DNA from: a virus
Taxonomy: Duplodnaviria; Caudoviricetes
DNA: 43,272 nucleotides
IMG/VR virus record: IMGVR_UViG_3300010362_000039
Location: 1-43,272 of that record
Reading direction: 5' to 3' (one strand)
Shown here: one piece after another, positions 9,470 to 38,733 of the stretch
Numbering within the stretch: position 1 is the stretch's first letter
Layout: each line of letters opens with the position of its first letter
Translations under genes and position numbers: made by a program
The notes under the pieces: generated by a model
The model's input: the letters and a program-made list of their open reading frames with translations, nothing else
Told to the model about the DNA's origin: nothing
Databases searched by the model: none

Positions 9470-9841
9470 ATGTGGACGTTGGCCAAATCGTTCCGGTTCG
9501 AGGCCGCCCATCACCTCCCGAGTCACGATGGGAAATGCCGGCGCGTGCATGGACATTCCTGGGTCGGAGAACTCGAGGTCCGCGGCGACATCCTCCACAC
9601 GACGGGCCCGAAACGCGGGATGGTGATCGACTACGGGGACCTGAGTGCCGCCCTGGCGCCGCTCGTGGAGGAGGTACTCGATCATCACGACTTGAATCTC
9701 ACGACGGGACTCCCCGATCCGACCTCGGAGGCGATCGCCGAGTTCATCTTCCGGTGGCTCACCTCCCGTCTGGAGGGGCTCGTCGCGGTGACGATTCACG
9801 AGACCTGCACATCGAGGTGCCGCTATGCTCCGGGTGACTGA
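9470..9841 (+). CDS. queD: 6-carboxytetrahydropterin synthase
   Basis: FEAAHHL, CRRVHGHSW, GMVIDYG, LDHHDLN, PTSE, ET motifs; GAGGTG RBS. Confidence 0.92.
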   Translation: MWTLAKSFRFEAAHHLPSHDGKCRRVHGHSWVGELEVRGDILHTTGPKRGMVIDYGDLSAALAPLVEEVLDHHDLNLTTGLPDPTSEAIAEFIFRWLTSRLEGLVAVTIHETCTSRCRYAPGD

Positions 9842-10439
9842 AATCTTTCGATCCTTACAAGGTGAGGGACGGCGGGCCGGTGAGCCGTCCGTGTTCGTCC
9901 GGTTCTCCGGGTGCTCGGCGAAACATGCGTGCGCGAGTTCGGGTGTTGTGTGCGATACCGAGTTCGAAAGCGGGACCGCCTTCGAGACTGAGGAACTCCT
10001 CGAGGTGGTCGAGCGTGTGGCGCGGGGCATCAAGTGGGTCGTGTGGACCGGTGGCGAGCCGATCGATCAACTCACCGAGGCGATCGTTCGGGAGTTCAAA
10101 CGCGCCGGCTACCATCAGCAGATCGAAACGAGCGGGATCGGGCGCGTGCCCGCCGGCCTCGATTGGGTCACCGTCAGCCCCAAGGTCGCGGAGCACATTC
10201 TCGTCCGGCATTTTCCGGAGCGTCAGGACGGCCTCCACGTTGACGAGTTGAAGTACGTCCGTCACGTCGGCCAGGCGATCCCGGAGCCGGCGCTCAAGGC
10301 CGCGGTGTATTGCCTCTCGCCGCACAGTGACGGCGATCTCCTCAACCGGGCGAACCTCGAGCACTGCATTCAACTCTGCTACGACCATCCCGCCTGGCGT
10401 CTCTCGGTGCAACAGCACAAGCTCTGGCGGGTGCGATGA
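9825..10439 (+). CDS. queE: 7-carboxy-7-deazaguanine synthase (radical SAM)
   Basis: EIFRSLQGEG, FVRFSGC...CDT, TGGEP, IETSG, TVSPK, WRLSVQQHK. Confidence 0.9.
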   Translation: MLRVTEIFRSLQGEGRRAGEPSVFVRFSGCSAKHACASSGVVCDTEFESGTAFETEELLEVVERVARGIKWVVWTGGEPIDQLTEAIVREFKRAGYHQQIETSGIGRVPAGLDWVTVSPKVAEHILVRHFPERQDGLHVDELKYVRHVGQAIPEPALKAAVYCLSPHSDGDLLNRANLEHCIQLCYDHPAWRLSVQQHKLWRVR

Positions 10440-11101
10440 AGAAGAAGCCCGCCGAAACGACGATCGAGGATCTGACACCGAACCCGCGGAATCCCCGCGT
10501 GGCCTGGAAGGCGGAGCAAATCGAACCGTTCAAGGCGAGTCTCCGCCGCTTCGGGGATCTCGGGGGCATCGTTCGCAATCTCACGACGGGGCAACTCGTC
10601 GGTGGACACAAGCGGGTCGAGGTGTTCCGCGCCTCCACCGATGTGCGCGTCGTGAAAACCACGCAGGCGAAGGATGAGCAAGGCACGGTTGCCCTCGGCT
10701 ACGTGATCGTCGACGGCGATCGCTTCGCCTACCGCGAGGTCGAGTGGGCACCGGAGATCGAGGCCGCGGCGAATCTCGCCGCCAATCGTTGGGGCGCCGA
10801 GTGGGCGTGGCAGCTGGTCTCGGAAACCTTGCAGGGCATCAGTGATCCGTCGCTGCTCGAGTTGACCGGCTTCCCGGCGCACGAATTGGAAAACCTCCTC
10901 GCCGCGGACTGGACGCCACCAGCCCGCGAGGCCTTACCGGATGACGGAGCGCCCGGGCACCTCGTGAAGTTGAGCAACGAACAGCACGCGCTTCTGCAGC
11001 AGTGCAAGGAACGCCTCGCCTTGCGGTACGAGGAGGACGGCCTCACCGATGCGCGTGTTGTCGCCCTGGTGTGCACGGAGTTCCTGAACCATGCCTCCTG
11101 A
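10436..11101 (+). CDS. ParB/Srx-like domain protein
   Basis: DLTPNPRNPR, SLRRFG, IVRN...LVGGHKR, LELTGF. Confidence 0.75.
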   Translation: MKKKPAETTIEDLTPNPRNPRVAWKAEQIEPFKASLRRFGDLGGIVRNLTTGQLVGGHKRVEVFRASTDVRVVKTTQAKDEQGTVALGYVIVDGDRFAYREVEWAPEIEAAANLAANRWGAEWAWQLVSETLQGISDPSLLELTGFPAHELENLLAADWTPPAREALPDDGAPGHLVKLSNEQHALLQQCKERLALRYEEDGLTDARVVALVCTEFLNHAS

Positions 11102-11939
11102 TATTCGACTCGCCCTCGCGGACGGCCAGGCGGAACGGAACGGCAGTCTCGATCGGCACCCGACCTCCGCACACGACCACGCGCCCGCGTTGCTCGTCTC
11201 GTACGTGTACCTCGAGCCGTTCTTCGAGAACCGCGCGCATTACCACTATCGTGACTGGGTCATGGATAGCGGCGCCTTCTCCGCGCATCACAGCGGGATC
11301 GAGATTCCGCTCGAGGCGTACATCGAGAAGTGCCGCGAACTACTCGCCACCGATCGGACGCTGACCGAGGTGTTCAGTCTCGACGTGATCGGCGATCATC
11401 TGGCGAGCCGGCGCAATTGCGAGGCGATGTGGTCGGCCGGCATCCCGGCGATTCCCTGTTATCACCACGGGGAGCCCGAGTCCGTTCTTCTCGAACTCGC
11501 CGCGGCGTATCCGAAGATTGCCCTCGGCGGCGCCGTCGGTTTGCGGTCCGCGTATAAGTTGCGATGGGCGCAACAGTGCTTCGCCCGGGTGTGGCCGAAG
11601 CGGATTCACGGGTTCGGGTTCGGCGCCGGTACCCACATTCTCGCGTTGCCCTGGCACTCCGTCGATGCCACGAATTGGGAAAGCGGGCCGTGCCTCTGGG
11701 GCAATTGGAAACGCTACGGGAAGATGAGCGTCCGCGGGAGTAAGCAGAACCTTCGCGGGGAAGTCGAGGATCTCCTCACGCTCGAGCGCCGCGCGCAAGT
11801 CCGGTGGCGTCCTCAGATGGTGGAGCTCGACGCCCTTCCCTCCACCGCGCCCGTCGTGCGCCTGGCGATGGCGACCAATCGCAACGTGAAGAGCGAGCGC
11901 TACACCTCCGGACTCGGACCGGTGAAAGGCACCTCATGA
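11091..11939 (+). CDS. TGT-fold transglycosylase, DpdA-like (candidate DNA 7-deazaguanine insertase)
   Basis: MDSGAFS, LDVIG, IPCYHHG, IALGGAVG, IHGFG, SVDATNW; embedded among preQ0 genes. Confidence 0.7.
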   Translation: MPPDIRLALADGQAERNGSLDRHPTSAHDHAPALLVSYVYLEPFFENRAHYHYRDWVMDSGAFSAHHSGIEIPLEAYIEKCRELLATDRTLTEVFSLDVIGDHLASRRNCEAMWSAGIPAIPCYHHGEPESVLLELAAAYPKIALGGAVGLRSAYKLRWAQQCFARVWPKRIHGFGFGAGTHILALPWHSVDATNWESGPCLWGNWKRYGKMSVRGSKQNLRGEVEDLLTLERRAQVRWRPQMVELDALPSTAPVVRLAMATNRNVKSERYTSGLGPVKGTS

Positions 11940-12604
11940 CGACTCTCGTGATCCTCTCGGGCGGGATGGATTCCGCCGTGCTCCTCGCCCATTTCCTCGA
12001 CGCCGGGCACATCGTCTCGGCGCTCAGTGTCGACTACGGGCAACGTCACCGAATCGAACTCGAGCACGCGCACGCCCTGGCGGACTATTACCGGGTCCCG
12101 TGGGAGTGTGCCGATCTCTCCGCCCTCCGTCCGCTCCTGGCGGGCAGTAGTCAGACGAGTGAGGTACCGGTTCCGTACGGGCACTATGCGGATGCGTCGA
12201 TGCGGGTGACCGTGGTCCCGAATCGCAACATGATTCTGCTCGCGGTCGCCGGCGCGAAGGCGATCGGGATGGCGGCGGACCAGATTGCCTACGCCGCCCA
12301 CGCGGGCGATCATCCGATTTATCCGGACTGCCGGCCCGAGTTCGTTGACGCGCTCGAGGCGGCGCTCCTCCTGGCCGACTGGCAACAGGTCCGGATTGCC
12401 CGCCCGTTTATCCGGTGGACGAAGGCGGAGATTTGCACCCGCGGCGCCGGCCTCCGTGTGCCGTTCGAGTTGACGTACTCGTGTTATGAGGGGCGCTCCG
12501 ATCGGCACTGCGGGCGCTGTGGTACGTGTGTCGAACGGCGCGAAGCGTTCACGCTTGCCCGGGTGCCGGATCCCACGCGGTACGCCGCCGAGGTGTCCGC
12601 ATGA
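11936..12604 (+). CDS. queC: 7-cyano-7-deazaguanine synthase
   Basis: LSGGMDS, DYGQRH, VPNRN, YPDCRPEF, TYSCY...CGRCGTC. Confidence 0.95.
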   Translation: MTTLVILSGGMDSAVLLAHFLDAGHIVSALSVDYGQRHRIELEHAHALADYYRVPWECADLSALRPLLAGSSQTSEVPVPYGHYADASMRVTVVPNRNMILLAVAGAKAIGMAADQIAYAAHAGDHPIYPDCRPEFVDALEAALLLADWQQVRIARPFIRWTKAEICTRGAGLRVPFELTYSCYEGRSDRHCGRCGTCVERREAFTLARVPDPTRYAAEVSA

Positions 12605-13155
12605 CCGTCGCTACTGATGCCGTGATCGAGCACCTCCACGGCCTCCTCGTCGCCCTCGGCGAAGATGCCACGCGGGAAGGCCTCCAACGCACACCCGAAC
12701 GAGTCGCACGCTTCTTCCGCGAACTCACGACCCGGCAACCGTTCGAGTTCACGACGTTCGATGCCGAGGGCACCGACGAAATGATTGTGGTCGGGCCGAT
12801 TCCGTTCTATTCCCTCTGCGAACATCATCTGATGCCCTTCTTCGGGACGGCCTCGATCGGTTATGTCCCGAACGGACGGATCGTCGGCCTCTCGAAACTC
12901 CCGCGATTGCTGGAGTACTTCGCGCACGGATTCCAAAACCAAGAGCGGATCACACAGCAAGTCGCCGCGGCGCTGATGGCGCGGGTCGAGCCGAAGGGCG
13001 CCGGCGTGGTCCTCCACGCGCGGCACCTCTGCATGGAAATGCGTGGCGTCCGGGTGCCAGGGGCGACGACGACCACCTCGGCGCTCCGGGGTGTATTCCT
13101 CGAGGATGCCCGCTGCCGGCGAGAGTTTCTCGAGTTCGATGCCCGTCAATCATGA
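12601..13155 (+). CDS. folE: GTP cyclohydrolase I
   Basis: REGLQRTPERVA, SLCEHHLMPFFG, GLSKLPR, QERIT, HLCMEMRGV. Confidence 0.95.
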   Translation: MTVATDAVIEHLHGLLVALGEDATREGLQRTPERVARFFRELTTRQPFEFTTFDAEGTDEMIVVGPIPFYSLCEHHLMPFFGTASIGYVPNGRIVGLSKLPRLLEYFAHGFQNQERITQQVAAALMARVEPKGAGVVLHARHLCMEMRGVRVPGATTTTSALRGVFLEDARCRREFLEFDARQS

Positions 13156-22683: not shown

Positions 22684-23095
22684 TTCCTCAGACATTGATG
22701 CGGCCCTCATCTCGAAACTCTCGGGCGATGCGCAGTTGACGACGCTCATGCCCGACGGGGTGTTCTTCGACCAGGCGCCGCAGGGCGCGACGAAGTTTGT
22801 CCTGCTGTCGATTGTCGATGAAGTGGATCTCCCGATGTTCCGGCAACGCGCCTTCGAGGACCACACCTACTTAGTGAAGGCCGTCGAGCTCTCGACCAGC
22901 GGCGCCAACGTGAAGGCCGCGGCCGCGCGCATCGACGCCCTCCTCGAGCAAGGCACGCTCACGGTGACCGGCTACAACACGATCGTGATTCAGCGGATTT
23001 CTCGACTTCGCCTGACCGAAGTCGATGACGTGGACGCGGCGATTCGCTGGCAACACCGCGGCGGGCGCTATGAAGTCGTGGTGACGGCACCATGA
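22676..23095 (+). CDS. Tail terminator/completion protein
   Basis: GVFFDQAPQGA...ARIDALL...WQHRGGRY; synteny. Confidence 0.75.
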   Translation: MPDSSDIDAALISKLSGDAQLTTLMPDGVFFDQAPQGATKFVLLSIVDEVDLPMFRQRAFEDHTYLVKAVELSTSGANVKAAAARIDALLEQGTLTVTGYNTIVIQRISRLRLTEVDDVDAAIRWQHRGGRYEVVVTAP

Positions 23096-23739
23096 TTGCG
23101 GAGCGCACCGTCGACGCCTACGGCTATTGTCCGCGGCACGGTGTGCCGGTGCTGCCGGAGCACGCGTGTGTGGCCTGTGTCGCGGACCGTCCACCGATCG
23201 ATCCCTCGCGGCGCCTGAATGTCGGCTGCGGGCTGTGGCCGCTGCTCTACTTCACGAACCTCGATGAATCCGCCCAGGCGATCGCCGACGTGATCGTGCA
23301 CGTGCCGCCGCTCCCCTACGACGCCGGCGGACTCGATGAAATTTACGCGGGGCATTTCCTCGAGCACCTCACGCCCGACGAGGCCGAGGCGTTCCTCGCG
23401 GATTGCTATCGCTGTCTCGTGCGCGAGGGGCGGATCGGGATCGTGGTTCCGGACACGCGGGCCATTATGGGGCGCTGGCTCTCGGCCGATCCCGGGGACT
23501 TCGTGGAATATCCGGCGGGCGTGTTTCATCCCGTCGCGGACCTCACCACGATCTGCGAACTCTTCCTCTATAGCACCGTGCAGGAATCGCCGCACCGCTG
23601 GTCGTACGACTTGGACACACTCGGCGCCACGTTGCAGCGGGCGGGGTTCGCGCTAACAGCGCCGATCAATCGCTATCACGATCATCGGATCCCGGTGGGC
23701 GCCTGGTATCAATGCGGCTGGGACGCGGTGAAGCGATGA
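23092..23739 (+). CDS. Class I SAM-dependent methyltransferase
   Basis: RLNVGCG, DEIYAGHFLEHL, CYRCLVREGRIGIVVPD. Confidence 0.8.
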   Translation: MIAERTVDAYGYCPRHGVPVLPEHACVACVADRPPIDPSRRLNVGCGLWPLLYFTNLDESAQAIADVIVHVPPLPYDAGGLDEIYAGHFLEHLTPDEAEAFLADCYRCLVREGRIGIVVPDTRAIMGRWLSADPGDFVEYPAGVFHPVADLTTICELFLYSTVQESPHRWSYDLDTLGATLQRAGFALTAPINRYHDHRIPVGAWYQCGWDAVKR

Positions 23740-24848
23740 CGGTGCTCCTCGTCCATCCTGGCGCGAGCTGGTCGACGACCGACGTCGAGGCCGGCCTCCG
23801 GTACGGCCTCACGCAACACGGGGTCCGCGTCGTGCGGTACCGCCTCGATGAACGGATCGATCGATCGAAGCGCTGGCTGTACGCGACGTGGAGACACGCG
23901 AAGAAGCGGAACCCGGATCTCGACCGTCCAACCACGGCGGATTTCTTCTATCAGGCGGGTGTCGGCGCCCTCGAGATGGCGCTCCGTCATCAAGTCGATG
24001 CGGTGCTGATCGTGAGCGCGATGTTCCTGCACCCCGACGTGATCATTCTGCTCAAACGCGCCGGCCTCTTCGTCACAGTCCTCTTCACCGAGAGCCCGTA
24101 CGACCAAGCGCAAGAACTGAAGATCGCGCCGCTCGTGGATGGGTGCTGGACGTGTGAGCGCTCCTCCGTCGAGGCGTTCCGCGCCGTCAACCCGCGGAGC
24201 GGTTATCTCCCGCACGCCTGGCACCCGGAGCGCCACCATCCCGGCACGCACGCCGAGGATGCCCTGGTCCCCGCGCATGACGTGGTGTTCGTCGGGTCCG
24301 CCTTCCGCGAGCGGATCGAGTGGTTCTCCGCCATTGATTGGCGCGGGATCGATCTCGGGCTGTACGGCGAATGGTCCGCCCTCGGCTCGCGGCACTGGCT
24401 CCGTCGCTTCGTGCGCGAAGGGCCGGTGACGAATCTCAAGACGGCCGCGCTCTATCGGCGGGCGAAGGTCGGACTCAATCTCTATCGCACCTCGCAAGGC
24501 TGGGGCAAAGACGCCCCGTCGATCGCACATGCCGAATCCCTGAACCCGCGAGCGTATGAACTCGCGGCGTGTGGCGCCTTCCACCTCAGTACGCGGCGGG
24601 CGGAAGTTGGCGAAGTCTTTGGCGATCGGGTTCCGACCTTCGGAACCGCCGCCGAAGCTGAATATCAGATCCGCGCCTGGCTGGCCGATGACGCGCACCG
24701 CGCGTCCATCGCGTCGAGCCTTCCGGCCTGTGTGGCCGAGTCGTCTTGGGTCGAACGGGCGACCCGAGTCATCGGAGATATGCAAACGCTCTTGCCGCGA
24801 CGGGCCGGCGCGATCGCGATCGACGCCGTGGGTACCGTGGCCGCGTAG
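23736..24848 (+). CDS. Glycosyltransferase (CgeB-like, GT-B)
   Basis: TESPY, YLPHAW, DVVFVGS, AKVGLNLYR, NPRAYELAACGAF. Confidence 0.8.
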   Translation: MTVLLVHPGASWSTTDVEAGLRYGLTQHGVRVVRYRLDERIDRSKRWLYATWRHAKKRNPDLDRPTTADFFYQAGVGALEMALRHQVDAVLIVSAMFLHPDVIILLKRAGLFVTVLFTESPYDQAQELKIAPLVDGCWTCERSSVEAFRAVNPRSGYLPHAWHPERHHPGTHAEDALVPAHDVVFVGSAFRERIEWFSAIDWRGIDLGLYGEWSALGSRHWLRRFVREGPVTNLKTAALYRRAKVGLNLYRTSQGWGKDAPSIAHAESLNPRAYELAACGAFHLSTRRAEVGEVFGDRVPTFGTAAEAEYQIRAWLADDAHRASIASSLPACVAESSWVERATRVIGDMQTLLPRRAGAIAIDAVGTVAA

Positions 24849-28924: not shown

Positions 28925-31900
28925 GTGGCAACGACGCGCACCCTCCTCGGTTCGAATGCGCTCAAGACAGGTCTGCCTGTCGCGACGACGTGGACGGCGC
29001 TCACCTCGATCACGCTGAGCGCCGGCGATACGTTGATCGTGTTGTCCGCGCTGAACAACGCGAACACGTTTGTCAAAGCGACGTGGAACGGGATCGATCT
29101 CGCCAACGACGCGATCAACAAAGCCAACGTCACGTCGTGTTGGATGAACGCGTGCTCGCTTTACATCACGTCGGGCGGCACGGGCAATCTCGTCCTCACG
29201 AACTCCGTCAATTGGAGCACCGTTGCGGCCGTCGGCGTCATCGCGATCAAGGTCACCGGCCTCGCATCCTCGGGGGCATTCGACCAGTGGGCACTGAACG
29301 GCGCAGCAGGCACGGCAACGCCGGTCACCGGCACCACGGGCACGCTCGCGCAAGCCGACGAATTTCTCGTCTCGATCCTGGGGTTCCTCGGGCCGAATAC
29401 CGATGCGGCGGGCACTTGGGGCGGCGATACGCCGAACGCGGGCGCGCGGGTCGGCACGAGCGGCGGTGGCGCGGCCTCGAACATCGTGCTCGACGAGGGA
29501 TACCTGCTCGACTCGTCCTCGACCACGGCGAAGCAAGGCAGTAAGAGCGGGGTCGGTGGCACTCGTGGGTATTGCGGGCTGATCGTCACCTACAAGACGG
29601 GCGCGACCTCGTTCACCGGAACCGGCGACGTGTCGTTCGGTGTGGCCGGTCTCGCGGGCACTGGCACCGTGCCGATCACCGGGACGGGCGCGGTGGCGTT
29701 CGGCGTGGCCGGTCTGAGCGGGACGGGCGCAGAGACGTTCACGAATGTCGGCACGGCGAACGTCACGTTCAAAGGCCCGCTGCTCTCGGGCGTCGGCACA
29801 TGGGGCGTGGATGGCACGGGCGGCGTGGTGTTTCGCGGGCCGGCGCTCGCCGCGACCGGCGCGCAAACATTCACCGCCGCGTCGGGCAACGTCACCTTCC
29901 GCTTCGCCCTGGCGGGCACCGGAACAGTCGCCCTGCCACCGATCACGGGGACGGGCGCGATCACGTTCGGTGTGGTCGGCCTCGCAGGTGTAGGCACAAC
30001 GGGCGGCGCCACGGGAACCGGCGGCGTCTCGTTCGCCGTCGCCGGCCTGGCGGGCACCGGCACGATCCTCGTCGCGATCACGGGCACGGGTGACGTTACG
30101 TTCCGCGTCGCCGGGCTCGCCGGCACCGGATCGATTCCGCTCCCGCCGCAGGGCATCTTCCTCGAGATGGAGTTCGCCGGCCGCGGCAATGGCTGGACCG
30201 AAGTCAAAGACTGGCGGCGCGCGGATGGCTTGCGCTGGGATCGAGGCCTCCCGGGGAACGGGGTCGCGGACTGCATCGCCGACACGGGCACGCTCAACTT
30301 CGTCCTCAATAACGCCGCCACGAATAGCGCACACCTCATCGGCTATTACAGTCCCGATCATGTGAACTGCCGCGCGGGCTTCCAATTGATGATGGGCGTC
30401 CGGGTGCGGATCGTCGTTCAGCAGAACGAATACATTCGCTTCACGGGCTATCTCGATTACATCGCGCCGCAACCCGGGATGCACCAGAGTTTCTCCGTCG
30501 ATTGCGAGGCGATCGGATGGATGGGGCTCGCGGCACGCACACGCCTCGGCGATCTGCCGATTCTGCTTGATGCAACCGGCGATGAGGTGTTCCAAACCGT
30601 TGTCGATTCACTCCCGACGTTCTCCCAGCCGCGCGCCATCGAGAAGGACGTGAGCGCCGATGTCTATCCGTACATCCTCGACCGCATCCGCGACGAAGAA
30701 ACACACGCGAACGATGAACTCTATCGGCTCGCCTTGAGTGGACTCGATCGGATTTGGGAGCGCGGCGACGGCACGCTCGTCTATGAAAGCCGAACCCGCC
30801 GGGCCACGCGCACGGCGAATAGCGACAGCTTCCCCGACACCCACGGGTTCAGCGCCCCGCGCACGGCGGACACGGTGGCGAACTCCACGCAAACGACGGT
30901 GCATCCGCGCTTGCCGAGTCCCGTCACCGACGCCGTGCTCTTCAGTCTGAACCAACCGATGCAACTCGCCGTCGGCCAGCCGGTGGACATCCTCGGGCCG
31001 TGGACGGACGTGAACAACCCGAACGTCCGTGTCGGCGCCGTGGGCCTCGTCTCACTCGTGGCCGGTACCGACTACATCGCCAACAGCCAGCAGGACGGGA
31101 GCGGCAGCAACTTGACGCCGTACCTCACGGTGACGGTCGGCCTCTCGGGGAACGCGACGGCGTTTACCGTCACGCTCGGCGGATCAAGCGCGGGCTATCT
31201 CACGAAACTCCAACAGCGCGGCCAGGCACTCCTCGACTACGGCGACGTCCAATCGTTGCAAACCGATCAAGCGAGCATCGACCAGTACGGCCTCAATCCG
31301 CTCAACGTCGATCTCCCCTATCAGGCCGATCCGAATTTCGGGATCGAGGTGGCGCAATACGTCATCTTCACGCGCGGGCAACCGGTGACGCTCGTCGAGG
31401 CGTTCCGCCGCGTGATCGGGATGACGAACTCTCCCGAACTCGCGCGCAGTCTCGGGCGAGAAATCAGTGACCGGATCGGCATCACCGAGCCCGTGACCGG
31501 CGTGCAGCGATCGTTCTTCATCGATCGCATCACGGAAACGGTCTACGCAACCCACGTCGAGACGGAGTGGTCCTTGTCGTTGCCGATTGATGGCCGGCAA
31601 TTCTGGCAACTCGAGGTGGTCGGGCGTGGCGAACTCGACATCAACACGCGTCTCGGGTTCGGCTTGATCGTCGGGCACACCGACGTGCTCCACTCCGACG
31701 AGCACGGCGACAGCGAGCACGGGGACGTCGCCCACTCCGATACGCATACCGACAACCCCGCGCTCAATCAATTGCACGGCGATGGCAGCAGTCACGGCGA
31801 CTCGGCCCATGCCGACGCCGCCCACAGCGACCGTGCTCACAGCGATGTGGCGCACCAGGATTTTCACCTCGATGATCGGTTTCAAGATCACACCGACAAC

Positions 31901-32266
31901 ACTCACAGCGACTCGGCGCACATCGACACCCATTTCGATTACCACGGGGATTTTGTCGATGAGGCACATGGCGTCTCGTTTGGCGATCACGGCGACACTC
32001 ACACCGACCAGGCGCACGGCGATGCCCACGGCGATAGCCCGCACATTGATGAAGCGCATGAAGACGGGCACGACGACATCGGCCATACCGACGTGTCCCA
32101 CGGGGACACCGCGCACGTCGACGTCGCGCACAACGATGCCTCGAGCCATTCGGACGTTCAGCACGCCGATCAACTCCACGGCGACGTGCCGCACGTCGAT
32201 GTGATCCACAGCGATGCCCCGCACAGTGATAGTCACGGGGACACCGCCCACGGAGACGCGAATTGA
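28925..32266 (+). CDS. Large tail/baseplate protein with Gly/Thr repeats and a C-terminal His-x-Asp repeat region
   Basis: Follows the tape measure; tail-hub-like middle (WTEV...RG...GTLNFVLNN...YSP); HxD-repeat C-terminus. Confidence 0.8.
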   Translation: MATTRTLLGSNALKTGLPVATTWTALTSITLSAGDTLIVLSALNNANTFVKATWNGIDLANDAINKANVTSCWMNACSLYITSGGTGNLVLTNSVNWSTVAAVGVIAIKVTGLASSGAFDQWALNGAAGTATPVTGTTGTLAQADEFLVSILGFLGPNTDAAGTWGGDTPNAGARVGTSGGGAASNIVLDEGYLLDSSSTTAKQGSKSGVGGTRGYCGLIVTYKTGATSFTGTGDVSFGVAGLAGTGTVPITGTGAVAFGVAGLSGTGAETFTNVGTANVTFKGPLLSGVGTWGVDGTGGVVFRGPALAATGAQTFTAASGNVTFRFALAGTGTVALPPITGTGAITFGVVGLAGVGTTGGATGTGGVSFAVAGLAGTGTILVAITGTGDVTFRVAGLAGTGSIPLPPQGIFLEMEFAGRGNGWTEVKDWRRADGLRWDRGLPGNGVADCIADTGTLNFVLNNAATNSAHLIGYYSPDHVNCRAGFQLMMGVRVRIVVQQNEYIRFTGYLDYIAPQPGMHQSFSVDCEAIGWMGLAARTRLGDLPILLDATGDEVFQTVVDSLPTFSQPRAIEKDVSADVYPYILDRIRDEETHANDELYRLALSGLDRIWERGDGTLVYESRTRRATRTANSDSFPDTHGFSAPRTADTVANSTQTTVHPRLPSPVTDAVLFSLNQPMQLAVGQPVDILGPWTDVNNPNVRVGAVGLVSLVAGTDYIANSQQDGSGSNLTPYLTVTVGLSGNATAFTVTLGGSSAGYLTKLQQRGQALLDYGDVQSLQTDQASIDQYGLNPLNVDLPYQADPNFGIEVAQYVIFTRGQPVTLVEAFRRVIGMTNSPELARSLGREISDRIGITEPVTGVQRSFFIDRITETVYATHVETEWSLSLPIDGRQFWQLEVVGRGELDINTRLGFGLIVGHTDVLHSDEHGDSEHGDVAHSDTHTDNPALNQLHGDGSSHGDSAHADAAHSDRAHSDVAHQDFHLDDRFQDHTDNTHSDSAHIDTHFDYHGDFVDEAHGVSFGDHGDTHTDQAHGDAHGDSPHIDEAHEDGHDDIGHTDVSHGDTAHVDVAHNDASSHSDVQHADQLHGDVPHVDVIHSDAPHSDSHGDTAHGDAN
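29615..30133 (+). repeat. About 8 degenerate protein repeats of TGTGxVxFxxxGLAGTG
   Basis: Visible in the translation of 28925-32266. Confidence 0.7.
31676..32266 (+). repeat. 37 His-x-Asp tripeptide motifs
   Basis: HTD, HSD, HGD, HAD, HID, HVD etc., mostly every 4-6 residues; 37 of 38 His are followed by Asp at +2. Confidence 0.9.
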
Positions 32267-33570
32267 GCATCGAACTCAATCCTGTCGGCGTGAAGTGCAA
32301 TCTCCAGTGTGCGTACTGCTACGAAGATCCGATGCGCGCCGCGGGTAACTACGCCGCCGGCTACGACCTCGAGGCGATGAAGCGCGGCCTCACCGCCGAG
32401 GGACACCCGTTCTCGCTCTTCGGCGGAGAGCCGCTCCTCCTGCCCCTGGCGGACCTCGAGGCGATCTTCCGCTGGGGCTTCGAGACGTATGGCAGCAACA
32501 ACGTCCAGACGAACGGGAATCTCATCACCGAGGCACACCTCGCGCTCTTCACCCGCTACCGGGTCGGGGTCGGGATTTCGATCGATGGTCCTGGCGATCT
32601 CAACGACGTGCGGAGCGCGGGCTCGCTCGAGAAAACGCGGGCGCTCACGGCGCGTACCGAGTGGGCGATCGAGGAACTCTGCGAGCGCCGGCACCCGCCA
32701 AGTCTCATCGTCACGCTCCACCGCGGCAACGCCGTCGGCCGCCGCCTGCATCGCTTGAAGGCCTGGCTCACGCACCTCCACACCCGCGGGGTTCGCTTCG
32801 TCCGTCTCCATCTCCTCGAAGTGGAATCACCCGAAGTCCGCCACCAGTGGGCACTCACCGAAAACGAGAACGTTGCCGCGATGCTCGATCTCGCGCACTT
32901 CGGGCACCTCCATCCGGATCTGCATCTCGACGTGTTCCACGATCTCGAGCAACTGCTCCGCGGTCAGGACAGCACGGGCGGCGGCGTGACGTGTGTGTGG
33001 AATGCCTGCGATCCGTACACCACGCGCGCCGTCCGCGGGATCAACGGCCTCGGCGAGAACATCAATTGCGGACGGACGAACAAGGACGGCGTCGATTGGC
33101 AGAAGGCGCAGACGGAAGGCTTCGAGCGGCAACTCGTGCTCTACGACACCCCGCAAACCGAACGCGGGTGCCGTGGGTGCCGGTTCTTCGTGGCGTGCAA
33201 GGGGCAATGCCCTGGCACGGCGATCGATGGGGACTGGCGCAACCGCACCGAACATTGCGGCGTATGGATGCGCCTCTTCGATCGGACGGAGCGCGATCTC
33301 CTCGCCGCCGGCGTCGTGCCGATCACGCGGTCGCCGGAACTCCCGGCGATCGAAGCGGTCATGCTCAACGCCTGGCGCGAGGGGCGGAACCTCTCCATCG
33401 AGCAGGCGATCGGCGTGCTCCACGGGCACCCGGTCCACCAGGGCGACCAACAGCATGGCGACCATTGGGACGCGCCCGACGGCTATCAGCACACCGATGC
33501 CGGCCTCGAGGTGCACGGCGATACGGGCACGACGGTCATGCACGGAGACACGCCACATGCCGACACGTAG
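32263..33570 (+). CDS. Radical SAM/SPASM protein (peptide-maturase-like)
   Basis: CNLQCAYC, FGGEPLL, QTNG, GISIDG, Cys-rich CRGCRFFVACKGQCP...C; TTG start overlaps the upstream TGA. Confidence 0.88.
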   Translation: MSIELNPVGVKCNLQCAYCYEDPMRAAGNYAAGYDLEAMKRGLTAEGHPFSLFGGEPLLLPLADLEAIFRWGFETYGSNNVQTNGNLITEAHLALFTRYRVGVGISIDGPGDLNDVRSAGSLEKTRALTARTEWAIEELCERRHPPSLIVTLHRGNAVGRRLHRLKAWLTHLHTRGVRFVRLHLLEVESPEVRHQWALTENENVAAMLDLAHFGHLHPDLHLDVFHDLEQLLRGQDSTGGGVTCVWNACDPYTTRAVRGINGLGENINCGRTNKDGVDWQKAQTEGFERQLVLYDTPQTERGCRGCRFFVACKGQCPGTAIDGDWRNRTEHCGVWMRLFDRTERDLLAAGVVPITRSPELPAIEAVMLNAWREGRNLSIEQAIGVLHGHPVHQGDQQHGDHWDAPDGYQHTDAGLEVHGDTGTTVMHGDTPHADT

Positions 33571-34675
33571 CGCCGAGTTCACCCGGCGAATGTGGGCCTC
33601 GGGCGCCGCGCGCCAGGCATGGGACCCGCGCATCCACCAGGCGGCCGAGGCGTGGCTCCGTCTCGAAGTGGAAACCGTGGTCACGGGCTTTCGGTCCGCC
33701 GGGCTGATCTTCGGGACCCGACACGTGCAGGGCACGCGCCTGGCGCTGGTCGACGTGGCGCCCGATCGCTTCGCCATCGGTCCTCGCGCCGCGGATCTCG
33801 CCGAGGCCTACCGCTGCGGGGACGATGAAACGATCGGCGCGTTGCTCGGATTCCCCTCGTGTTGTCGGGAGTTCTACGCGGCGACCTGGGCGCAAGGAAC
33901 CGGCGATACAACGTGGCAGATGGCGCGCGAGGGGACCGATGGGCCACTTGAGTGCAACATTCTCGGGCGCTGGCTCGGCCTCCGGTGGGTCATGCATCTG
34001 CCGTGCTCCTTCACCTGTCCGCAGAGCGCCGCGCTCGGCGCCGCACATCGCGGCCTCCTTCGCGCGATCGATCGCTCCGCCGTGGAGGTGATCGATGAGG
34101 TGTTGACGTGGCCGATCGAATGGTCCGCTCTCCACGGTGCCGCGGAGATCCGGTATCCGGTCGTGAAGGTGGTCACGCGCACCGGCTACACGACTGACAA
34201 ACGCATCGTGCAACGACGGGGCACGAGTTATCCGCCTGAAGGCGCGCGGGGACTGGCGTTCCCCTATTCCGCCGCGGAGATGCGCACGCCGCAGGAGAAC
34301 GGGTTCCCCTCGAGCACCACGCAGGATGCCGGCCACGCGATGATCCTCGACGCGCTCCGCCGCTCGCCCCCGCACGGCGCCGTGCTCGACCTCGGTGCCG
34401 GTAACGGCCTCCTGATGGAACGGATCGCCTCGACGTTTCTCCGTCCGGTCTACGGCATCGAAGTCGACGCGCGGAAGGCGGCGAAGCATCCCGGGATTCG
34501 CTGCGGCGATGTACGCGCCCTGGAGACGCTCGTTAATCGTGTGGACACGATCGTGGTGTCGCAGCGTCGGTTCGAAGAGATCCCGGACCTCCGCGCCACC
34601 GTCGATCGCCTCGCCCGCCAAGTGCTCGTCTACTCGTACGACGATCCGCGGTTCGCCCGTGTGGAGGCGTGCTGA
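33557..34675 (+). CDS. DUF483-like Cys-rich domain fused to a class I methyltransferase domain
   Basis: GALLGFPSCCREF and HLPCSFTC; C-terminal VLDLGAGNG...YGIEVD; ATG 33557 with GGAGA upstream. Confidence 0.65.
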   Translation: MPTRSAEFTRRMWASGAARQAWDPRIHQAAEAWLRLEVETVVTGFRSAGLIFGTRHVQGTRLALVDVAPDRFAIGPRAADLAEAYRCGDDETIGALLGFPSCCREFYAATWAQGTGDTTWQMAREGTDGPLECNILGRWLGLRWVMHLPCSFTCPQSAALGAAHRGLLRAIDRSAVEVIDEVLTWPIEWSALHGAAEIRYPVVKVVTRTGYTTDKRIVQRRGTSYPPEGARGLAFPYSAAEMRTPQENGFPSSTTQDAGHAMILDALRRSPPHGAVLDLGAGNGLLMERIASTFLRPVYGIEVDARKAAKHPGIRCGDVRALETLVNRVDTIVVSQRRFEEIPDLRATVDRLARQVLVYSYDDPRFARVEAC

Positions 34676-35064
34676 TGTTCATCACGCTCAACGGGCCGGA
34701 ACAATTGCAGTTTGAGACTGGTCGACGCGTGCAGAACACCGCCGACTATCTCGAGTGGCACGCGCGGAATCTCAATCCGACGGCGCGCGGGGAACAGTTC
34801 CATAGTCCGATGCCGGTGGTCGTCGAGCACGGGCGATGGCTGGTGCACTGCGTCTGTGGCTGTGGCGTGCTCACACGTCCGGAGATGCCGATCGCCTGCT
34901 GTATCTGGTGCGGCAACATTTACGACCGGGTGATGTTCCCGACAAATTGGCGCACCATCGAACGTGTGTTGTTACGCCGCCCCATGCGCGAGCAGCAAAA
35001 CTGGATCGGCGAAACGGTGGATGCACTCCTCGCGGAAAACGAGGAGCACTTAGGGGTGATGTGA
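34669..35064 (+). CDS. Hypothetical zinc-binding protein
   Basis: GRWLVHCVCGCG...CCIWCG...NW.GETV..L.AEN. Confidence 0.6.
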   Translation: MLMFITLNGPEQLQFETGRRVQNTADYLEWHARNLNPTARGEQFHSPMPVVVEHGRWLVHCVCGCGVLTRPEMPIACCIWCGNIYDRVMFPTNWRTIERVLLRRPMREQQNWIGETVDALLAENEEHLGVM

Positions 35065-35576
35065 TGGCGTGGACAGTTCCTCGCACCTGGGTCCCGGGTG
35101 AGCTCGTGACCGCCTCGATGATGAACACGCAGATCCGGGACAATCTGACGTACCTGTTCTCGGCGCGCGGGTCGTGCATGTTGTACGCGAGTTCGCTGCT
35201 CTTCGCGCCAGTCGATTCCACGACCTACTATGCCGGCCATCCGCAAACGTCGTCGGTGCAAACCGCCGCCGATCTCTCGCGGGTCTACGTCCCGGCCACC
35301 GGCACGATCAACGCCGCCTATCTCTCGATTGTGGTCGAGGGCACGATCGGATCGACGGAAACCTCGTCGGCCTGGATTCGCAAGAACAACACGAGCGACA
35401 CGCTCATCTCGAGCAGCGTCCAGGCGAATCAAGCGGCGCAGTACTACAGCCTGGTCCCGAATCTCTCAGTCACCGCGGGCGATTCCCTCCAATTGAAGTG
35501 GACGACGCCCGCCTGGGCAACCAATCCGACGAACGTACGGATGGCCTTGCAGTTGGCGCTCCAAGCGAGCGGCTAA
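35064..35576 (+). CDS. Tail fibre / minor tail protein
   Basis: N-terminus AWTVPRTWVPGELVTASMMNTQIRDNL is typical of siphovirus minor tail proteins. Confidence 0.7.
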   Translation: MAWTVPRTWVPGELVTASMMNTQIRDNLTYLFSARGSCMLYASSLLFAPVDSTTYYAGHPQTSSVQTAADLSRVYVPATGTINAAYLSIVVEGTIGSTETSSAWIRKNNTSDTLISSSVQANQAAQYYSLVPNLSVTAGDSLQLKWTTPAWATNPTNVRMALQLALQASG

Positions 35577-37399: not shown

Positions 37400-37597
37400 T
37401 CGCCCCAGGCGCTGGAGTGCCTCCTCCCGCGAGGAGGTCGCCAGGACCACCTCCACCTTGCCCCGGCCGGCATCCGCCCACACGCCGTATCGAGGGAGTG
37501 TGAACCCGGGTCCGCCGTCCGTCCGTTCCACCGCGAGATCCGCGCCGAGGTCCGTCACGAAGCCGGCCGCCGTGTGTTGAATGATCGTGATGCTCAT
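37376..37597 (-). CDS. Hypothetical protein
   Basis: ATG overlaps the integrase stop; the 3' end runs into the attP arm site. Confidence 0.45.
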   Translation of the reverse strand: MSITIIQHTAAGFVTDLGADLAVERTDGGPGFTLPRYGVWADAGRGKVEVVLATSSREEALQRLGRGNRKGNH

Positions 37598-38733
37598 TTC
37601 GTCGTGCCCTTCTTCGCCCGTTCCTGGGCCCCGTCGTACCGGGTGATGGCATCGGAGAGATCGCCCGGGCTCACGATGTCGTAGCGCTTGAACACCTCGT
37701 CGGTCAGGTGCCCGGTCAACTTCTTCGCCACGCTCTGGGGCACCCCGGCGCGCACGAGGTTCCGGCACGCCGTCCGCCGGAAGTCGTGCGGGATGCGTTT
37801 GATGCCGGCCGCCTCGCACGCCTTCCGCCACGTCTTCTCGAACCGCTTGATCCGCCGCGGGGTCTTCGGTCCGCCGCGCCCCTTCGCCACCTCTCGGACA
37901 AACACCGCGGGGCAGAGCGTGCCCGCTTTGACCCACTCGTCATGCCGGTCCTTGAGGGTCTGGAGCACCCGGTAGAGTTCGGTCGTGAACGGGAACGTCC
38001 GCCCCTCGCCGTTCTTCGTTTCACCCGGTTCGAGTCGCACCTCACACGCCTCGAAGTCCACGTTCCGCCAGTCCCGCGTGAGCACTTCGCTATCAATCCG
38101 CCAGCCCGTGATGTACGCGAACTCGATGACCGGTTTCAGGAAGTCGGGCAGCTGCGCCATCACGGCATCAAACTGGTCCCGCTCGAAGAATCCTTTGCGC
38201 ACGTTGTGCTCCTCGAGTTCGGCAATGTACGGCGCGTAGAGGAGTTTGCCGTTCTCGAGCGCCAAGTTGAATGCCCGCCGCAGGATGGAGAGTTCCCGAT
38301 TGATCTGCCCGTTCGAGGGCTTCCGGGATTTCCGATCCTTCCCTGTGCCCGTCACGATCGGTTGCGCCTTCCGCCACTTGATGTAGTCGAGAATGTCGGC
38401 CTTCGAGATCGTCGCCATCCGCCGCCCGCCGAAAAACTTGAGGAGGTGGAGATCGATCCTCCGTTGCGCATCGTCGATGCTGTCGTACTTGTTCAACTCG
38501 TAATCGGTGATCACGTCGGCCAGGGCTTCATCCACGCGCAACTTACCGATCTTCGCCGTGACCGGCACGCCCTGGTCGATGTCGCTCTCCTTCTTCCGCA
38601 TGATCTTTTTCGCTTCGGTTCTGTTCTTAGTACGGCTGCTCTCGAAGATCGCTCGCCCGTTCCGGTAGTACTTCATCATCACCGGTCCGATCGGGTTCCC
38701 GTTCTTGTCTTTTTTCTGATAGAGGTGTCCCAT
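37594..38733 (-). CDS. int: Tyrosine integrase
   Basis: TGWRIDSEV, TKNG, HDFRRT, LTGH, KRY catalytic residues. Confidence 0.95.
   Translation of the reverse strand: MGHLYQKKDKNGNPIGPVMMKYYRNGRAIFESSRTKNRTEAKKIMRKKESDIDQGVPVTAKIGKLRVDEALADVITDYELNKYDSIDDAQRRIDLHLLKFFGGRRMATISKADILDYIKWRKAQPIVTGTGKDRKSRKPSNGQINRELSILRRAFNLALENGKLLYAPYIAELEEHNVRKGFFERDQFDAVMAQLPDFLKPVIEFAYITGWRIDSEVLTRDWRNVDFEACEVRLEPGETKNGEGRTFPFTTELYRVLQTLKDRHDEWVKAGTLCPAVFVREVAKGRGGPKTPRRIKRFEKTWRKACEAAGIKRIPHDFRRTACRNLVRAGVPQSVAKKLTGHLTDEVFKRYDIVSPGDLSDAITRYDGAQERAKKGTTK

Follow-up and report, generated by a model that had tools for sequence, protein, structure and literature searches.

A 43,272-base virus record, IMGVR_UViG_3300010362_000039, the whole of which was analyzed and is referred to here as the window, encodes a long tract of His-x-Asp (HxD) motifs at the end of a likely tail protein. 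The tract lies in a cassette of three genes, each overlapping the preceding one: the tract carrier, a radical S-adenosylmethionine (SAM)/SPASM enzyme, and a fusion of a DUF483-like domain with a methyltransferase. Tract, radical SAM enzyme and DUF483-like partner constitute a real, conserved and widespread module. Judged by motif and by predicted fold, the module appears to be triceptide-like and to belong to no named family. By analogy with the triceptide synthases, its activity is probably the formation of serial ring-to-Cβ crosslinks along the tract of a likely virion protein.

All 37 HxD motifs of the 1113-residue carrier fall between residues 918 and 1111, within its last 196 residues (from nucleotide 31676), where 37 of 38 His residues have x-Asp after them; shuffling of the tract (10,000 shuffles) gave a mean of 8.1 HxD, with an SD of 2.3 and a maximum of 17. 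FQD, FVD and FGD stand in register within the array, and both they and the HxD density bear out what the first-pass annotation of this DNA had noted. Motif spacing is 3-6 residues in 37 of 39 cases (5 residues in 23). In comparison with a close relative (L001), identity is 97% at the 74 core positions occupied by His or Asp and 60% at the remaining ones, the core codons differ by 27 synonymous changes, and Tandem Repeats Finder detects only one 2.1-copy 12-bp repeat. An assembly or minisatellite artefact was ruled out on these grounds, and the tract is therefore a selected protein motif rather than a DNA minisatellite. Searches of Pfam, NCBIfam and PHROG gave no match to the carrier. Its gene directly follows one for a 958-residue protein, taken from position and size as the tape measure, and also lies after that of the major tail protein (phrog_1407). 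In the ESM Atlas, the nearest clusters to the approximately 510-residue domain ahead of the tract are viral, and the nearest named ones (DUF5047, DUF5048 and YqbQ, at 0.93-0.94) serve as leads only; the domain has no PDB sequence match. Gene position and the Atlas leads make the carrier a likely tail-tip or hub protein, and hence a likely virion protein.

The first-pass annotation had set out beforehand a check for whether homologous radical SAM genes adjoin HxD-repeat open reading frames, and they do. Loci were fetched by radical SAM homology (58 viral loci and, of 239 bacterial ones, the best 80), and dropping 32 with less than 3 kb on a side, together with near-duplicates, left 32 viral and 64 bacterial non-redundant loci. 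With a tract taken as at least 6 His/Phe/Tyr-x-Asp/Asn motifs in 60 residues, one is present beside the enzyme at 31 of the 32 viral and 49 of the 64 bacterial loci, versus 3 of 56 controls; the sole viral locus without a tract (L016) is cut off upstream. The partner adjoins the enzyme at 32/32 viral and 62/64 bacterial loci. Carriers range from hub-like tail proteins and fiber-type proteins of 200-530 residues to peptides of 60-90 residues, which begin MP-HxD, and proteins of 800-2,260 residues. The sequence ahead of the tract varies by carrier type and amounts to only 2-3 residues in some bacterial peptides, spacings range from 3 to 10, and no more than about 13 residues nearly always separate the tract's end from the C-terminus. 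Some bacterial tract proteins carry what are presumably twin-arginine-like signals, spotted by eye from the consensus. The proposal that the substrate is a tail protein rather than a small precursor thus fits this phage, where it is likely from gene position, and does not extend to bacterial relatives, whose tracts occur on short peptides, on these twin-arginine-like proteins and on very large proteins. In Acidobacteriota (L102-L105, L109, L121), short peptides made up almost wholly of HxD are encoded directly upstream of the radical SAM gene, several starting MP-HxD; these are good candidates for small test substrates. The Thermus phage phiLo (L140, 14807-19389, minus strand) encodes side by side three proteins whose HxD counts are 72, 101 and at least 26, on the opposite strand to its radical SAM and partner genes and 4-9 kb from them.

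The association was also examined from the side of the carrier. A total of 140 loci found through the 512-residue domain alone reduced to 102 non-redundant loci, 65 of which have at least 4 kb downstream. Both tract and radical SAM gene are absent from 47 of these and both are present in 18; one without the other does not occur. Nine of the 18 carry the tract fused to the domain and the other nine have it on a separate fiber-type gene; some relatives of the domain stop where the tract would start. None of five tract-less hub-domain records, of which three reach 90% completeness or more, has the enzyme anywhere. A reverse DNA-pattern scan for HxD arrays gave at least 123 loci, 80 with flanks, most matches being 15-bp tandem repeats without relation to the module. 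Among the matches listed, 23 flanked loci hold 10 or more HxD with 5 or more kinds of x, and 16 of them have the radical SAM gene in the locus. The other seven comprise one with enzyme and partner about 50 kb off (L222), two from records 30-41% complete with the partner elsewhere (L163, L195), one of the same family, outside the records searched (L219), an apparent off-frame repeat (L159), and two from G003 (L197, L198), which is considered below.

The enzyme starts with a TTG at 32263, overlapping the carrier stop. Its CxxxCxxC motif (C12/C16/C19) and partial TIM-barrel model are those expected of radical SAM/SPASM enzymes, as the first reading of this gene had held: PF04055 is passed at 31.7 bits against a cut-off of 29.5, and all eight SPASM-type Cys (C244/249/269/303/306/312/316/332) are invariant in 56 sequences. 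No SPASM Pfam match was obtained at E 0.01, and that assignment comes from the Cys pattern and the fold. The fold neighbors of the predicted model (pLDDT, the predicted local distance difference test, 85.6) are peptide and protein maturases, namely anSME (Z 29.3, root-mean-square deviation 2.9, 327 aligned, over enzyme residues 1-352), the cyclophane synthase ChlB (Z 28.8, deviation 3.1, 324 aligned) and next CteB (Z 23.6). No NCBIfam named-family cut-off is reached (bits/cut-off: AmcB 61/425, anSME TIGR03942 60.6/349.45, DynA 55/450, YhhB 50/445, GrrM/OscB 40/310, XyeB 32/450, FxsB 31/370), and four bacterial relatives are likewise far under. The PADLOC matches were only generic ones, to radical SAM enzymes and methyltransferases. 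Four active-site-proximal positions, as defined in the available part of PMC10288494, could be aligned: Y20, Q82 and S106 are the same as in ChlB, while F53 corresponds to a His. Covariation of Arg181 (strand 5) with the motif was considered and rejected; Asn or Ser is common there beside HxN-rich tracts, but many Asn181 enzymes pair with pure HxD. Among 8,000 candidates scored there were 2,248 homologs, and in an unrooted FastTree phylogeny of 130 rows a single branch (support 95) separates the viral enzymes from the bacterial ones. Six HxD motifs at the enzyme's own C-terminus were absent from the first-pass annotation; at least three HxD occur in the last 110 residues of 54 of the 120 best homologs. 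One locus (L055, 5249-12622, plus strand) has two tandem radical SAM paralogs with 13 and 25 HxD of their own, between two tract carriers.

Substitutions within 42 non-redundant viral and 63 bacterial tracts reveal what the motif demands. Two residues before an Asp that lacks its His, the viral tracts have Phe in 37 cases (21 tracts, 8.5-fold enriched) and Tyr in 48 (15 tracts, 6.0-fold), while Cys occurs once, Glu twice, Arg once and Gln twice. Where the residue two positions after His is other than Asp, it is Asn in 40 cases (8 tracts) and Glu in one. In the bacterial tracts, Tyr is 22-fold enriched. A Phe codon is two base changes from a His codon, and Arg and Gln codons are one; that Phe replaces His while Arg and Gln are rare therefore argues for selection. 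The extreme case is the fiber-type carrier of L024 (2908-3945, plus strand), with 37 FxN, 2 FxD, 6 HxD and 1 YxD, in which 39 of 42 Phe are in the motif (shuffled mean 10.4). Its N-terminal domain is 70% identical to that of an HxD carrier, the same partner and radical SAM genes adjoin, the enzyme retains Arg181, and five relatives show motif mixtures. Metal chelation of the kind open to His-x-Asp is closed to an array of Phe-x-Asn, and so the feature conserved across tracts is aromatic-x-Asx (Asx being Asp or Asn) and not metal binding, which formed part of the first-pass reading and is weakened as a general function by this relative.

The L024 tract also bears on the possibility that the tract is never modified and acts as a metal-binding His/Asp fiber or an aromatic/Asx-ladder fiber, with the enzyme and partner linked to it otherwise, as for a cofactor or chaperone. 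His-based metal sites exist in trimeric phage fibers, Phe and Asn can likewise be accommodated in aromatic stacks and Asn ladders, His and Asp make up 41% of the tract, and the HxD array of G003 has no enzyme. Nevertheless, this explanation is improbable: L024 has kept the module with a tract almost devoid of His, Glu and Cys hardly substitute, the same motif recurs at varied spacings on unrelated carriers and tiny peptides, and among relatives of the tail domain those without the tract all lack the enzyme. The irregular spacing and frequent Pro of many tracts fit a unit-by-unit reading of the motif better than a regular solenoid.

Serial crosslinking, the reading preferred here, has its closest precedent in the triceptides, in which an aromatic carbon is joined to Cβ two residues on. 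The links described in the available text of PMC11002830 and PMC11499958 include Phe-Asn (XncB, OscB), Trp-Asn/Asp (OscB) and Tyr-Asp (YxdB), as well as His C2 to Ala, Arg or Lys (HaaB, YhhB, HtkB), and HtkB also takes Phe for His; no joining of His to Asp is listed there. The module resembles these three-residue cyclophane-forming systems (HaaB, HtkB, YhhB, YxdB, XncB, OscB, ChlB), as far as they are covered in those sources, in its aromatic-x-x motif, in a SPASM enzyme without an RRE, and in the fold tie with ChlB. Since the aromatic-x-Asx variants match characterized triceptide products, FxN and YxD being known substrates, the triceptide-like reading is favored. The module departs from the same synthases in falling under all family cut-offs, in presenting about 40 motifs on a likely structural protein with no evident leader, and in its constant DUF483-like partner; a 1113-residue carrier is unlike the precursors of the triceptides, which are short and consist of a leader and a core peptide that is released. 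Another one-enzyme system, TvgB, likewise modifies every unit of a repeat array to form poly-cyclopropylglycine, but according to the portion of PMC9062424 available its repeats are TVGG on a small precursor, with no aromatic residue, and are not viral.

The evidence linking tract and enzyme would apply equally if the enzyme pair performed a different chemistry, such as addition of a SAM carbon with oxidation (+8 Da), Asx epimerization, Cβ hydroxylation or dehydrogenation, a dynobactin-like N-linked ring, or methyl-ester or isoAsp formation by the methyltransferase. Precedent for the first comes from the anti-phage HXS system (HxsA-D), in which a His-repeat protein is matured by radical SAM enzymes with a single +8 Da change (PMC13128918, in part). 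HXS shares with the module His-x-x repeats on a whole protein and radical SAM maturation with a small partner, but has five His-x-Ser repeats, two radical SAM enzymes of another family and a role in host defense, whereas here a single phage-encoded enzyme accompanies acidic HxD repeats. HxsB and HxsC are absent from the best 25 of 38 NCBIfam matches of the enzyme, and one relative (L100) scores just 32 of the required 370 bits on HxsB. A radical SAM enzyme in no named family, an unusual four-Cys partner, and a methyltransferase fused in most viral cases all favor other chemistry; an aromatic at position i with Asx at i+2 and a free residue between is the triceptide pattern, and most bacterial loci lack the methyltransferase. 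Overall, a different modification is rather unlikely, though less so than an unmodified tract.

The partner, a 372-residue protein encoded at 33557-34675, overlaps the end of the radical SAM gene and is, as first described, a Cys-containing domain fused to a methyltransferase. DUF483 (PF04467) scores 21.6 bits on it, under the gathering threshold of 25 (E 2e-4), and 30.2 bits, over the threshold, on a homolog (L013); its structural neighbors in the Atlas (TM-score 0.92) are clusters with DUF483 in 20% of members. The model has a mean pLDDT of 93.9 over the whole chain, with the N-terminal 240 residues confidently folded. Residues 245-372 (the C-terminal 128) adopt the class I methyltransferase fold (Z 13.6, deviation 2.5, 125 aligned), and structure searches with the whole partner model returned the methyltransferase domain only. 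By motif count, the methyltransferase glycine motif is present in 39 of the 44 viral partner reading frames and in 22 of the 63 from bacteria, and the partner domain is fused to the radical SAM enzyme in 6 of the 120 best enzyme homologs. In L075 (9195-11057, plus strand) the DUF483-like partner is fused to DUF364 (putative heavy-metal chelation), with no methyltransferase.

A homologous gene trio in the Thermus phages Cumys and phiMa has been termed the "rSAM module" and proposed to modify DNA; the main text of PMC11437467, in the part available, does not use "histidine", "RiPP" or "precursor" and makes no mention of HxD repeats. The radical SAM enzymes share 50% identity over 96% of their length, the DUF483 partners are homologous, the order after the tail genes is the same, and in both an adjacent third gene, upstream, carries the tract. 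In the Thermus phages, the tract is on a separate 343-residue fiber-type protein and no methyltransferase is annotated on the partner; in the present phage, the hub-like protein itself bears the tract as a fusion. The published proposal and the QueE-, TGT/DpdA-, QueC- and FolE-like genes of the window could be taken to imply joint action on phage DNA. That is very improbable: the third Thermus gene (Cumys_13, phiMa_29) encodes a protein whose HxD tract holds 53-54 motifs, a distance of about 19 kb separates the deazaguanine cluster from the module, which is placed among tail genes, the fold neighbors are peptide and protein maturases, and the Thermus phages lack deazapurine genes (PMC11437467, as available).

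Under the crosslinking model, the tract would be the substrate. The enzyme would abstract a hydrogen from the Asp beta carbon in each His-x-Asp or Phe-x-Asp triplet, and that carbon would be joined to the aromatic ring two residues back, the ring-Cβ bond being proposed by analogy to the triceptide synthases; each three-residue cyclophane would cost 2 Da, and up to about 40 could form along the C-terminal arm of the likely tail-tip protein. The DUF483-like partner likely assists the radical SAM enzyme. Modification may occur in the host cytoplasm before tail assembly. A leader peptide would not be needed for recognition, because some bacterial peptides start MP-HxD and tracts end near the C-terminus. 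The product might be a stiff, protease-resistant appendage for attachment or particle stability, and the methyltransferase could provide optional tailoring on a His nitrogen or the Asp carboxyl. A broader proposal, more tentative and with chances somewhat short of even, is that phages and bacteria share a portable "aromatic-x-Asx tag", needing no leader, on which the radical SAM enzyme and DUF483 partner make a poly-cyclophane arm, whatever the protein fused to it. Here about 40 His-Asp rings would form a tail appendage, the first virion-protein crosslinking of the RiPP type (RiPPs being peptides made by the ribosome and modified after translation), and the enzyme would mark its own tail likewise.

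Several observations weigh against this model. In fold the enzyme is as near to anSME as to ChlB, it lies far under every cyclophane-synthase cut-off (best 61 vs 425 bits), and Phe occupies (142/153 rows) the position before GGEP where ChlB has His. Asp, too, is enriched (3.4-fold) two residues before an orphan Asp, and the Phe and Asn enrichment is weak (about 2-fold) in bacterial tracts. At 15 of the 64 bacterial loci there is no long tract, and a four-motif pattern scan of five tract-less bacterial genomes gave no convincing distant substrate; some other tract-less bacterial loci hold peptides with one or two motifs. The perfect 18/47/0 pattern of the hub-domain loci requires about four changes on a quick tree of the domain, and therefore reflects a handful of independent events. 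G003, estimated complete, has 50 HxD as near-exact HTDTA tandems with no radical SAM or partner gene, and since it keeps an array without the enzyme it is the one true exception to linkage in the reverse scan. The HTDTA tandems lie in a Cys-rich protein of at least 3,800 residues (L197, 1-11408, minus strand), and no radical SAM gene was found in the 206-kb record. The related HXS system gives one +8 Da change rather than serial losses of 2 Da (PMC13128918, in part), and the presence of the carrier in the virion is itself an inference. With respect to anSME (PDB 4K36-4K39), the best fold and sequence neighbor with the same eight-Cys SPASM spacing, the enzyme reaches 61 bits against a cut-off of 349 and no sulfatase is present among the window genes scanned. 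After an auxiliary-cluster Cys, Gly270-Arg271 stands in the place of the anSME catalytic Asp.

The module and other features of the window are listed in the table. Terminase, portal, protease, capsid, head-tail connector, major tail protein and integrase genes are all present, and so the phage is tailed and probably temperate, the latter from the tyrosine integrase. A methyltransferase and a glycosyltransferase (23092-24848, plus strand) are inserted between the tail completion and major tail genes; they are possibly a second virion-modifying pair, and the glycosyltransferase is also present in relatives without the HxD module. Downstream of the cassette (34669-35576, plus strand) are genes for a 131-residue Cys-containing protein and a 170-residue fiber-type protein, which are found in relatives whether or not these have the module and are therefore part of the tail and not of the cassette. 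The start of the 170-residue protein is similar to the N-terminus of separate HxD carriers. A HalA match on P0172 (41 vs 250 bits), inside the repeat, was taken as a low-complexity match.

Table. Features of the HxD module and of its genomic surroundings, in window coordinates.
Feature	Position	Strand	Basis or remark
Carrier, 1113 residues; likely tail-tip/hub protein with C-terminal HxD tract	28925..32266	+	Position, open reading frame
Gly/Thr/Ala/Val-rich N-terminal carrier region, variable among relatives	28925..30139	+	Sequence; tblastn match in 1/140 hub loci only
Conserved phage domain (~510 residues; 512), putative tail hub; relatives with or without tract	30140..31675	+	51 homologs
Tract, 37 His-x-Asp and 3 Phe-x-Asp, C-terminal HGDAN; predicted substrate	31676..32263	+	Motif count
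Radical SAM/SPASM enzyme, 435 residues, anSME/ChlB-like fold, no N-terminal RiPP recognition element (RRE); predicted maturase	32263..33570	+	Motif, model
Six HxD motifs in C-terminal tail of the enzyme	33454..33564	+	pLDDT <50
DUF483-like domain, near-constant radical SAM partner	33557..34276	+	C102, C103, C150, C154 conserved
Small class I SAM-dependent methyltransferase domain, optional in family	34289..34675	+	Fold, glycine motif
7-Deazaguanine DNA-modification cluster: QueE-like radical SAM, ParB-like, TGT/DpdA-like, QueC, GTP cyclohydrolase (FolE-like)	9825-13155	+	Directly before terminase
Tyrosine integrase	37594-38733	-	Pfam

Within the literature covered on radical SAM enzymes with His-Xaa-Asp, DUF483, and phage or virion RiPPs or cyclophanes, a scope that leaves most subscription papers outside it, no paper on HxD-modified virion proteins was found. 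If the model is correct, an enzyme would densely furnish phage particles with a covalent modification hitherto known from small natural-product peptides. This would add a layer to virion chemistry, possibly one of host attachment or stability, and would assign a function to DUF483. Protein engineering, too, could gain a useful tool in a cyclophane synthase that acts on fusion tags in a highly repetitive way and independently of a leader. Because cultured Thermus phages (Cumys, phiMa and phiLo) carry the module, these proposals are directly testable.

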